Shown in pieces: positions 6,001 to 9,000 of a stretch of DNA of 40,851 nt (the stretch's first letter is position 1; every line of letters starts with the position of its first letter). Position numbers: made by a program. Location of the stretch: IMG/VR virus record IMGVR_UViG_2721755728_000008, one strand, 5' to 3'. Origin of the DNA: a virus. Its lineage: Duplodnaviria; Heunggongvirae; Uroviricota; Caudoviricetes.

Positions 6001-9000
6001 AAAGGTCATCCGCGGCTCTGTGCCCCCGAAACCATCCGGGACCGTCTGGTCGCAGTACTGCGCAATGGCATACAGCGCCCACTTGTCAACATCCGCCGCC
6101 ACCAGACGTTTTCCCATGCCGTAGCGCGGGTGAGTCAGCATGTCCCACAGGCACCAGGCCGGGTTGTTGCTGTATGCCGGTTTCAGGCTGCCGTCCCAGA
6201 TGCCGCTGTACGTGCGTTTTTCCGGGTCATAGTTTGACGGCACCTGGATGATGCGACCTCGGATATGGTAGTTCACCGTCATCTGCTGACCGCCAAACTG
6301 CTCCGCATCCACCTGCAGCCCCACAATCGCCGTGTTCGGGTAGCACTGTTTCACATCGATGATTTCGGTGTATGACGACCAGAGCGTCTTATTCTGCAGC
6401 TGGTCCGTGGTGCTGTCCGCCGTCTCCCTGACCATCCGGATGTTAAAGGGGCGGGGAGGCAGATTATCCAGAATCACCGAAGCGAGGAACTGTGAGGTGG
6501 TCTTGCCGTTAATGGTGACATCCTTTTCCGTCACCCAGTTACCGTTACGCTGCAGCTGAATCAGCAGGCGGACGGATGCCGGGTTACGGTCACCCTGTGA
6601 GGTGGTCTGCACCAGTGACTGCACCCCGAAGGTGACCCGCAGGCGGTCAATGTTCGCGGACGTAATGGTGCGCGTCACCGGCTTTGCCTTCGTCACTTCC
6701 ACGCCCAGTGCGGTTTCAGAGCCGGATGACTCAAAACCTTCCGGCGGTGTCTGCTCCTGCTCCCCGGCGCGCCAGACCGCTGTCACACCATGTATCACAG
6801 GATTACCGTCCGTGTCCGTCAGCGGGGTTTTGTTCACCAGAATACTCTGCAGCCCCTTCACCGGACCTTCAATCGGCCCTTCACCAATGGCGTCAATCAC
6901 GCTCATCATCTGCGTGGATTTGAGATTATCCTTCGCCTCTCGAGGCGTGTGCGCCCTGCCGCCACCTTTGCCCATAATGTTCCTCTCAATTGGTATTATT
7001 AATCGCAGTGATAGGATATTGCACAGCTATTGCGCGATATCATCAGAACGCTGTTTGTTACCCTGTAACCAGCAAGCTCAGTCTGTTAACGGAATTAATG
7101 AGGGTTTTATGAAATGTAAAATCATTGCTGCCATTGCCATGCTGACAGCAGCATCATGCGGATACGCAGCAGAACAGGAAGTCCCAATGAACCTTGTCAG
7201 TGCTGACGGAAAAGAAGTCAGCATTGGAAAAATAACCATTCAGGAGACCCCCTACGGTCTGCTGTTCACACCAGCCCTTCACTCTCTGTCTGAAGGCATT
7301 CATGGTTTTCATGTGCACGAAAAAGGAAATTGCGCCCCGGCACTGAAAGACGGAAAACCGGTCGCAGCATTATCGGCTGGCGGTCACTTTGACCCGAAAA
7401 ACACCGGCAAACATCTTGGCCCCTGGTCTCCGGATGGACACCTGGGCGACCTCCCTGCGCTGTTCGTGACGCATGACGGAAAAGCGAACTACCCGGTCCT
7501 GGCCCCGAGACTGAACTCATTAAAAGAGATTAAAGGGCGTTCTCTCATGCTTCATGCTGGCGGTGATAACCATCATGACCATCCGGAGCCCCTGGGCGGT
7601 GGTGGTGCGAGAATGGCCTGCGGCATCATTCAATAATCAGTCAGGTAAGGGGCGGGCCCCTTACCTTTATTCCTCAGGACGATAAATCCTTTCTCCCTGA
7701 AAAGAACGGCACATCCTCCCTCTCTGAGTTAATGTTTTTGTCGTGACATAAGAATAATTCCTTACACTCAATCTTCATTTTCTGTTCCCGCAGCCTTCGG
7801 TCACTGCGGGATTTTTTCGCTTTTATGCCTGCCGCCCGATAACCACCACCTTCCCGTCACCGCCTTCATCACGGGTACTGATGTCCTGGGAGATTCGCCG
7901 TGAGCCAACCAGCATTTCACCGTAAGGCACCGGCATCGGGTTCCCCTGAGCAATCATGTTGTCCAGTGAGGAAAAATACGTGTTCTGTCTGCCGTTATCC
8001 GTTGCGCGGTAATCCGGTGTTTTTGCCTTCGGGGCAAGCATCTGAGCCACACCACCCAGTATCATGCTGGCCCCCAGTGAAAACAGCATCGTGGTGGCAG
8101 AAAAACCACCGGCTGCCAGGGCTGAACCCCATAACGCCATTGATGCCCCGGCAGTGAAGAAAGAGCCCACGATGGCTGCCGCCCCCAGCACAATCTGCAG
8201 TCCACCCTTTCCGGCCCCGGCCAGTCGCGGCACAATGTGGATGATCGTTCCCTCACCCAGTTGTTCGTGAAGACGGGCGTACACCGCCTCCGGTGCCGTG
8301 TCCTCACCGCGTACCATCTGGCGGGAATTGATATGCCGGATTTTGAGCGTGAGGATGACTGGTGGCGCAACGGTCAGAACCTTTACCTGGACAATATGGC
8401 GGTCACCGGCTTTTACCGGGTGCCCCTGTCCTCTGCACAGGCGGGCGATATCCTGCTGTGCTGCTTTGGCGCATCGGTGGCCAATCATGCCGCCATTTAC
8501 TGCGGCAACGGTGAACTGCTTCACCATCTGCCTGAACAACTGAGTAAACGGGAGAGGTATTCCGAAAAATGGCAACGACGAACGCATTCTGTCTGGCGTC
8601 ACCGCCACTGGCACGCATCTGCCTTCACGGGGATTTGCAACGATTTGGCCGCCGCCTCAGCCTGTATGTGAACACGGCAGCGGAAGCCATCCGTGCCCTG
8701 TCGATGCAGATGCCGGGATTCCGCCGTCAGATGAACGAAGGCTGGTACCAGATACGTATTGGCATCCCGGAACAGCGTGTAACAGTCCGTCACCCCGTGC
8801 TCAAAGCGCCGTCCTGTCAGATGTGGCACACAGCGGAATTTATGAATTTCCCCCCGGCAGACCAGCCACCAGGACAGTGCACTTTTTATCTGCAGCCGCC
8901 GGTCGGCCTCGCTCAGCCAGGGCAGACCACCGGGATGACTGTGGACCAGTGCCACAATCTCCCCCTGCATCTCTGCCCGCAGCCAGTCTTCCGGTGCAAT

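Follow-up and report, generated by a model that had tools for sequence, protein, structure and literature searches.

A 449-bp reversed segment across tail genes K and I of a lambdoid prophage in the Escherichia coli C7 record is probably an assembly artifact

Results

Gene order of prophage A in strain C7

The window, by which we mean the whole stretch of 40,851 nucleotides that was analyzed, comes from the chromosome of Escherichia coli C7, a strain isolated from a cow (NZ_CP010240.1, assembly GCA_001901425.1; 4,110,558 added to a window position gives the record position). It holds a lambdoid prophage, here called prophage A, which is integrated beside tRNA-Ser/mtfA and has its late genes on the minus strand. 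Read along the plus strand, the tail end of this prophage runs nleB2, tail fiber, lom, J, sodC, I, K, L, M, and H. The order is that of lambda: K and I are flanked by L, M, and H in one direction and by J, lom, and the tail fiber in the other. PGAP annotation of both C7 and strain 2013C-4991 shows a lambda-type tail module with K and I located after L and before J. Compared with the L-K-I-J order of lambda, prophage A has sodC between I and J. This gene, for a Cu/Zn superoxide dismutase (window 7109..7636, plus strand), lies on the strand opposite to that of the neighboring tail genes I and J. A second lambdoid prophage of C7, here called prophage B, has only a 246-bp spacer at the place of sodC.

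The nearest relative of prophage A is the same prophage in strain 2013C-4991. The early region of prophage A (window 34520..37095) holds a hypothetical gene, a SAM-dependent methyltransferase gene, and a gene for a SMEK-domain protein, while the corresponding stretch of the sister prophage holds a SLATT and SMODS nucleotidyltransferase pair; this slot looks like a variable site for defense-type genes. Downstream of the Q antiterminator (window 30227..30476) there are three tRNA genes in C7 (Arg, Arg, Ile) and two in the sister prophage (Arg, Ile). Beyond the tail fiber genes, window 1..981 and the DNA just upstream in the record carry type III effector cargo. In prophage A, nleB2 is intact, nleC is truncated, and nleH is frameshifted, and the states in 2013C-4991 are identical. 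The sister prophage has nleF further out, and at the matching place C7 has a called gene with an NleF caspase-inhibitor domain.

Genes K and I are each deposited in two pieces on opposite strands

In the deposited sequence, the reading frames of K and I are interrupted at the edges of one segment, and the pieces are as follows.

7823..8311, minus strand: C-terminal fragment of I, codons 65-226 and stop (open reading frame and alignment)
8312..8760, plus strand: block T, the 449-bp flipped segment, comprising K codons 129-247 with the stop and I codons 1-64 (translation and Pfam)
8312..8671, plus strand: K codons 129-247 and stop; NlpC/P60, E value 3e-9
8569..8760, plus strand: I codons 1-64; matches positions 3-49 of the 83 in the Lambda_tail_I profile
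8761..9144, minus strand: N-terminal fragment of K, codons 1-128; Pfam Prok-JAB (JAB/MPN), E value 7e-16

An earlier note, made from this DNA alone, had claimed that a flip of about 449 bp at 8312..8760 splits K and I, and this was confirmed for all four pieces, coordinates included. PGAP at NCBI independently calls four partial pseudogenes here, and their edges are those of the K and I fragments. The note had also claimed that turning the segment back would restore both genes in frame. This was borne out: the reverse complement of 8312..8760 gives an uninterrupted K of 247 amino acids and an uninterrupted I of 226 amino acids, with zero bases gained or lost. Intact K and I frames are absent from the sequence as deposited and are present only once the segment is flipped.

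The restored genes have exact counterparts elsewhere. The 247-amino-acid K matches exactly a protein found on 335 contigs, and the 193-amino-acid form of I, which is the form that PGAP annotates, matches exactly a protein found on 142 contigs; both are common proteins of E. coli prophages. At the DNA level, flipped-back 8262..8920 is 100% identical to a colinear prophage in strain 88_1577. Pfam searches with the fragments and with the restored proteins found Prok-JAB and NlpC/P60 in K and Lambda_tail_I in I. The earlier note would have abandoned the flip if the plus-strand reading frames had no similarity to K and I; the NlpC/P60 and Lambda_tail_I matches show that they do. The four C7 fragments thus add up to exactly one each of the lambda tail-tip genes K (JAB/MPN plus NlpC/P60) and I. 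Unlike in lambda, 449 bp across the K/I overlap are on the other strand in the C7 record.

The two junctions of the flipped block could be placed almost to the base.

8311/8312 (between 8311 and 8312; site 8310..8313), no strand: junction p2, blunt, with zero microhomology
8760/8761 (between 8760 and 8761; site 8759..8762), no strand: junction p1, with 1 nt (one G) of ambiguity

The breakpoints had previously been placed to within about 3 bp, and that placement can now be sharpened: p2 is exact and p1 is fixed to 1 nt. Inverted microhomology at the two breakpoints would have pointed to a real mutation; we found 0 nt of it at 8311/8312 and 1 nt at 8760/8761.

A terminal inverted repeat, TACCATCTGG / CCAGATACGTA, is perfect for 6 bp, continues with a 1-nt offset beyond, and lies inside the flipped block. 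It falls below the listing threshold of an inverted-repeat scan that returned 21 pairs in 671 bp; the repeat is at chance level and has no meaning. The short imperfect inverted repeat that had been described at the ends of the flip is therefore present, but only 6 bp of it are perfect and it is not significant. It was also considered as a crossover site and ruled out, because it is at chance level and internal to the block, with the junctions outside it.

The flipped arrangement is confined to one assembly

We compared a 1.6-kb region around K and I with 5,426 complete E. coli genomes, which returned 24,569 K-I places. All three parts of the region lie on one strand at 1 of these 24,569 places, and that place is C7 itself. 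The earlier note had allowed that related phages might be naturally organized in this way. None of the 24,568 other loci is; they all have a single orientation.

Other collections gave the same answer. None of 268 matching phage records has the flipped arrangement. The 24-mers across both junctions had no match among IMG/VR viral contigs, the p2 24-mer had none among JGI metagenome contigs, and the p1 24-mer had none among GTDB genome contigs. Exact-protein look-up of the four open reading frames that cross the junctions found none on record. A similar look-up with the J protein of prophage A, made in search of an independent C7 assembly, returned only the NCBI record itself. Across the genome, phage, metagenome, and GTDB scans, the arrangement is thus confined to one assembly, as an artifact would be.

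The flipped block is an exact copy of the K-I region of prophage B

On either side of the block, prophage A is nearly indistinguishable from the sister prophage: 7000..8311 is 100% identical to 2013C-4991, and 8761..10000 is 99.9% identical, the sole difference being one homopolymer indel at 9054. The block itself (8312..8760), by contrast, is only 95.1% identical, and its 21 mismatches all lie within 8383..8637. The sequence that it matches at 100% identity is NZ_CP010240.1 3100814..3101262 (plus strand), where prophage B has an intact K-I region. Prophage B lies at 3.09-3.11 Mb, about 1.02 Mb from prophage A, in the opposite orientation.

A maximal-exact-match scan found that the block is the sole same-strand exact match between the two loci. 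All the rest are on opposite strands, as is expected between prophages that are inverted relative to each other. When flipped-back prophage A was aligned colinearly with prophage B, there were zero differences inside 8312..8760, and the first base outside the block on each side (8311, with 8310 as well, and 8761) was A-type and mismatched prophage B. With mismatches flanking both sides and no difference within, the flipped piece is a maximal exact match between A and B. At the observed A/B mismatch density of 5.5%, about 0.2-0.3% of random segments would have mismatches on both flanks. Exactly one of the 278,460 segments that could be drawn around the B-type core is the flipped block.

The earlier note had implicitly read the flip as the prophage's own DNA inverted by mutation. 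This reading was not supported by the identity of the block to the sister prophage (95%, versus 100% and 99.9% for its flanks), its 100% identity to prophage B, its edge-matched ends, and a breakpoint in common with a second anomaly, described below. Judging from these alignments, we do not think that the block is resident sequence of prophage A turned round by mutation.

Differences between prophage A and 2013C-4991 occur as tight clusters of single-nucleotide polymorphisms (SNPs), with kilobases of identity between them.

Window 2631-2691, 4091-4276, 6408-6901, 11671-12073, 17261-17713, 18271-18626, and 19543-20063: SNP clusters relative to 2013C-4991

This is how short conversion patches are expected to look where lambdoid prophages share a host. 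Exchange of this kind, by recombination and gene conversion, is known for the lambdoid prophages that reside together in EHEC-like E. coli, and C7 resembles such cases in its tight SNP patches and in a 4.9-kb exact repeat between A and B. The B-type K-I patch of prophage A is itself probably the product of real inter-prophage conversion. To our knowledge, however, homologous exchange keeps gene order and strand and cannot flip a block in place, and in this the C7 block differs from its products. We worked through homologous recombination between A and B on paper (single and double crossovers, conversion, and successive megabase-scale inversions); all the products keep gene order and strand, and this origin for the flip was rejected.

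A tandem duplication in prophage B shares a breakpoint with the flip

Prophage B contains a 3,428-bp tandem duplication (NZ_CP010240.1 3101262..3108117, which is L003 10449..17304).

L003 10449..13876: copy 1 of the duplication, prophage B
L003 13877..17304: copy 2 of the duplication, prophage B

The resulting order in prophage B is K, I, J truncated at nucleotide 2690, I without its first 64 codons, and full J. We found the J/I join (record 3104689/3104690) in none of the other genomes among the 5,426, and strain C3, which belongs to the same submission series, has this prophage without the duplication. An untrimmed circularization overlap was considered as the cause of the duplication and ruled out, because the record ends in a third prophage and there is no overlap.

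The I-side end of the duplication (between L003 10449 and 10450) is the flip breakpoint p2 to within 1 nt, the uncertainty being due to a 2-nt TG overlap at the J/I junction. The J-side end (p3) falls 0-2 nt after the last difference between the A and B versions of J, and from there on A-type and B-type J show no difference over more than 2 kb. Between the two copies there is identity over 2,703 bp, and the 29 sites at which they differ all lie in the last 724 bp. Copy 1 carries the B-type J patch, as C3 does, and copy 2 the A-type J patch; copy 2 matches J-lom of prophage A exactly over 4,898 bp.

2021..6918, minus strand: J and lom, 4,898-bp exact match to prophage B in inverted orientation (maximal-exact-match scan)

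Through this 4,898-bp A/B repeat, a megabase of the chromosome could readily invert, unless the repeat is a collapsed assembly consensus.

There are, then, three breakpoints in two rearrangements found only in C7; all of them lie at edges of A/B exact repeats, and one was used twice. An exact copy of the block elsewhere in the same assembly and breakpoints at exact-repeat boundaries are what an artifact would leave, and both were found, with p3 included among the breakpoints.

State of the C7 record

The C7 record starts inside the third prophage. The portal gene of prophage A (window 19098..20690) is in three frames, with -1 and +1 indels in G runs at 19543 and 20203 relative to 2013C-4991. 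The start of the record within a prophage and the G-run indels in the portal gene suggest limited finishing. The two portal indels bracket a SNP patch. Frameshifts are likewise annotated in the integrase gene just outside the window and in the portal gene of prophage B. All of these portal and integrase frameshifts could be real decay or consensus errors. We searched the literature with the C7 accession and neighboring accessions for the sequencing and assembly method and found only an unrelated, list-type citation.

Discussion

The flip as a probable assembly artifact

We consider it probable, from the sequence relationships described above, that the flip is an assembly or finishing artifact of the C7 record in which a repeat block was set on the wrong strand. 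The inversion across K and I is thus most likely not a real biological feature. A mis-join had been listed earlier as something to check for, and the parentage of the block, the identity-block edges, and the common breakpoint all fit one.

In this explanation, the true prophage A would have K and I in normal gene order and would carry a B-type patch. Patches of this kind are common in prophage A, and a colinear allele exists in 88_1577. The patch would have created a 449-bp exact repeat between A and B that ends on either side at a single-base difference. The sequence may then have been broken at the edges of the exact repeat while contigs were built or joined or gaps were filled, and the shared block would have been set into locus A in the strand orientation of locus B. 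The tandem duplication of 3.4 kb at locus B would be false and the result of a second mis-join at the same edge.

That the breakpoints lie at exact-repeat boundaries is what points to contig joining or finishing. Sequence is broken exactly at repeat edges by contig or unitig ends, exact-match merging, gap filling, and manual placement of repeat contigs, while we know of no reason why illegitimate events should stop at single-base differences from a locus 1 Mb away. Repeat blocks that are wrongly oriented or wrongly joined, seen as local inversion misassembly and false tandem duplication, are a known category of assembly error. The C7 case shares with them its restriction to one record, the exact repeat elsewhere in the assembly, the breakpoints at repeat edges, and the second anomaly with a common breakpoint; it differs in that the C7 artifact is deduced from sequence relationships and not from reads.

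Some observations do not favor an artifact. A strict graph walk yields neither a repeat node on the wrong strand nor the J/I join, so a looser step must be assumed, which may have been manual placement, gap filling, or match-based merging. Clean junctions and an error-free block would also be left by a conservative real inversion. Real conversion patches about as long as the block occur commonly in prophage A, and by our estimate the B-type patch would be nested within a real inversion with a chance of roughly 6%, so the patch alone is not decisive.

Real rearrangement as an alternative

The flip could instead be real, with 449 bp of prophage A inverted in place by illegitimate breakage and rejoining and a conversion patch acquired from prophage B, in which case K and I would be truly inactivated. 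We think this unlikely. It accommodates the exactly reciprocal junctions, at which no base was lost, and it can draw on the conversion patches that are frequent in prophage A. The patch would have been acquired before the flip or after it, with the block then in direct orientation to prophage B; in the latter variant, conversion would have been confined to the block, which explains why the B-type sites lie inside it. However, two or three independent rare events are required, and the position of both breakpoints on A/B mismatches (p about 0.002) is left unexplained, as is the reuse of p2 in a second C7-only rearrangement 1 Mb away. Inverted microhomology is absent at the junctions, and the arrangement was seen at 1 of 24,569 loci.

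One replication-based template-switch event, of the MMBIR or FoSTeS type, might link both of the C7-only anomalies, although we regard this as very unlikely. The nascent strand of prophage A would have switched to prophage B, copied 449 bp of the same chromosome strand, and returned to A, and a further switch would have duplicated 3.4 kb in B. A single event would then cover the B-derived sequence, the common p2, and the presence of two unique anomalies in one genome, and the 2 nt (TG) of microhomology at the J/I junction speak for it. At the flip junctions, however, microhomology is only 0-1 nt. The switch would have had to exit and re-enter A exactly at homologous positions, reversed, and there is no known mechanism to enforce this. 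Nor does it explain why three breakpoints fall on the edges of A/B identity blocks, and the A-type J patch in copy 2 of the duplication needs a further event.

In the most novel version of this very unlikely template-switch event, the ends of perfect A/B identity would have set the switch points, and the block copied from B would have entered the exactly homologous slot of A on the wrong strand. Such ectopic conversion would invert the strand, for which no precedent is known to us.

The Mu G/Gin, P1 C/Cin, and e14 P/Pin systems are programmed invertible tail fiber segments. A recombinase-driven switch like these, which the site in a phage tail module and the short imperfect inverted repeat near the ends might bring to mind, is effectively refuted: the ends have a 6-bp perfect repeat inside the block, where such a switch has inverted recombination sites of about 26 bp, the annotation of the prophage stretches examined shows no invertase gene (only a frameshifted tyrosine integrase at the attachment end), the flipped state destroys K and I and gives no alternative products, and the 24,568 other loci have a single orientation. 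The C7 block resembles the Mu, P1, and e14 switches in that DNA within a cluster of phage tail genes is inverted, but it is without their recombinase, significant terminal repeats, alternative reading frames, and second orientation in other genomes. The earlier view that this is not a programmed invertase switch is thus supported by the insignificant repeats, the lack of an invertase gene in those stretches, and the one orientation seen elsewhere.

Consequences for strain C7 and for prophage surveys

It had been concluded from the split genes that the prophage cannot make K or I and is tail-defective. This stands for the deposited sequence, in which both genes are split. It probably does not carry over to the strain, in whose cells the flip is likely not present. 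The conclusion of a tail defect is doubtful because it rests on a feature that is probably not in the cell, and it is probably wrong to call the C7 prophage tail-defective on the ground of K and I.

If the flip were real, it would be a rare, clean loss-of-function inversion, and, together with the common breakpoint, it would be evidence for an unusual inter-prophage template switch. If it is an artifact, the RefSeq "complete" sequence NZ_CP010240.1 has at least two local structural errors in prophage tail modules. It would then also contain six false pseudogenes, and surveys of prophage integrity or of lambdoid mosaicism would wrongly count the prophage as tail-defective. A cheap and general test for such cases is to ask whether a rearrangement has its breakpoints where a maximal exact match to a paralogous locus of that assembly ends.
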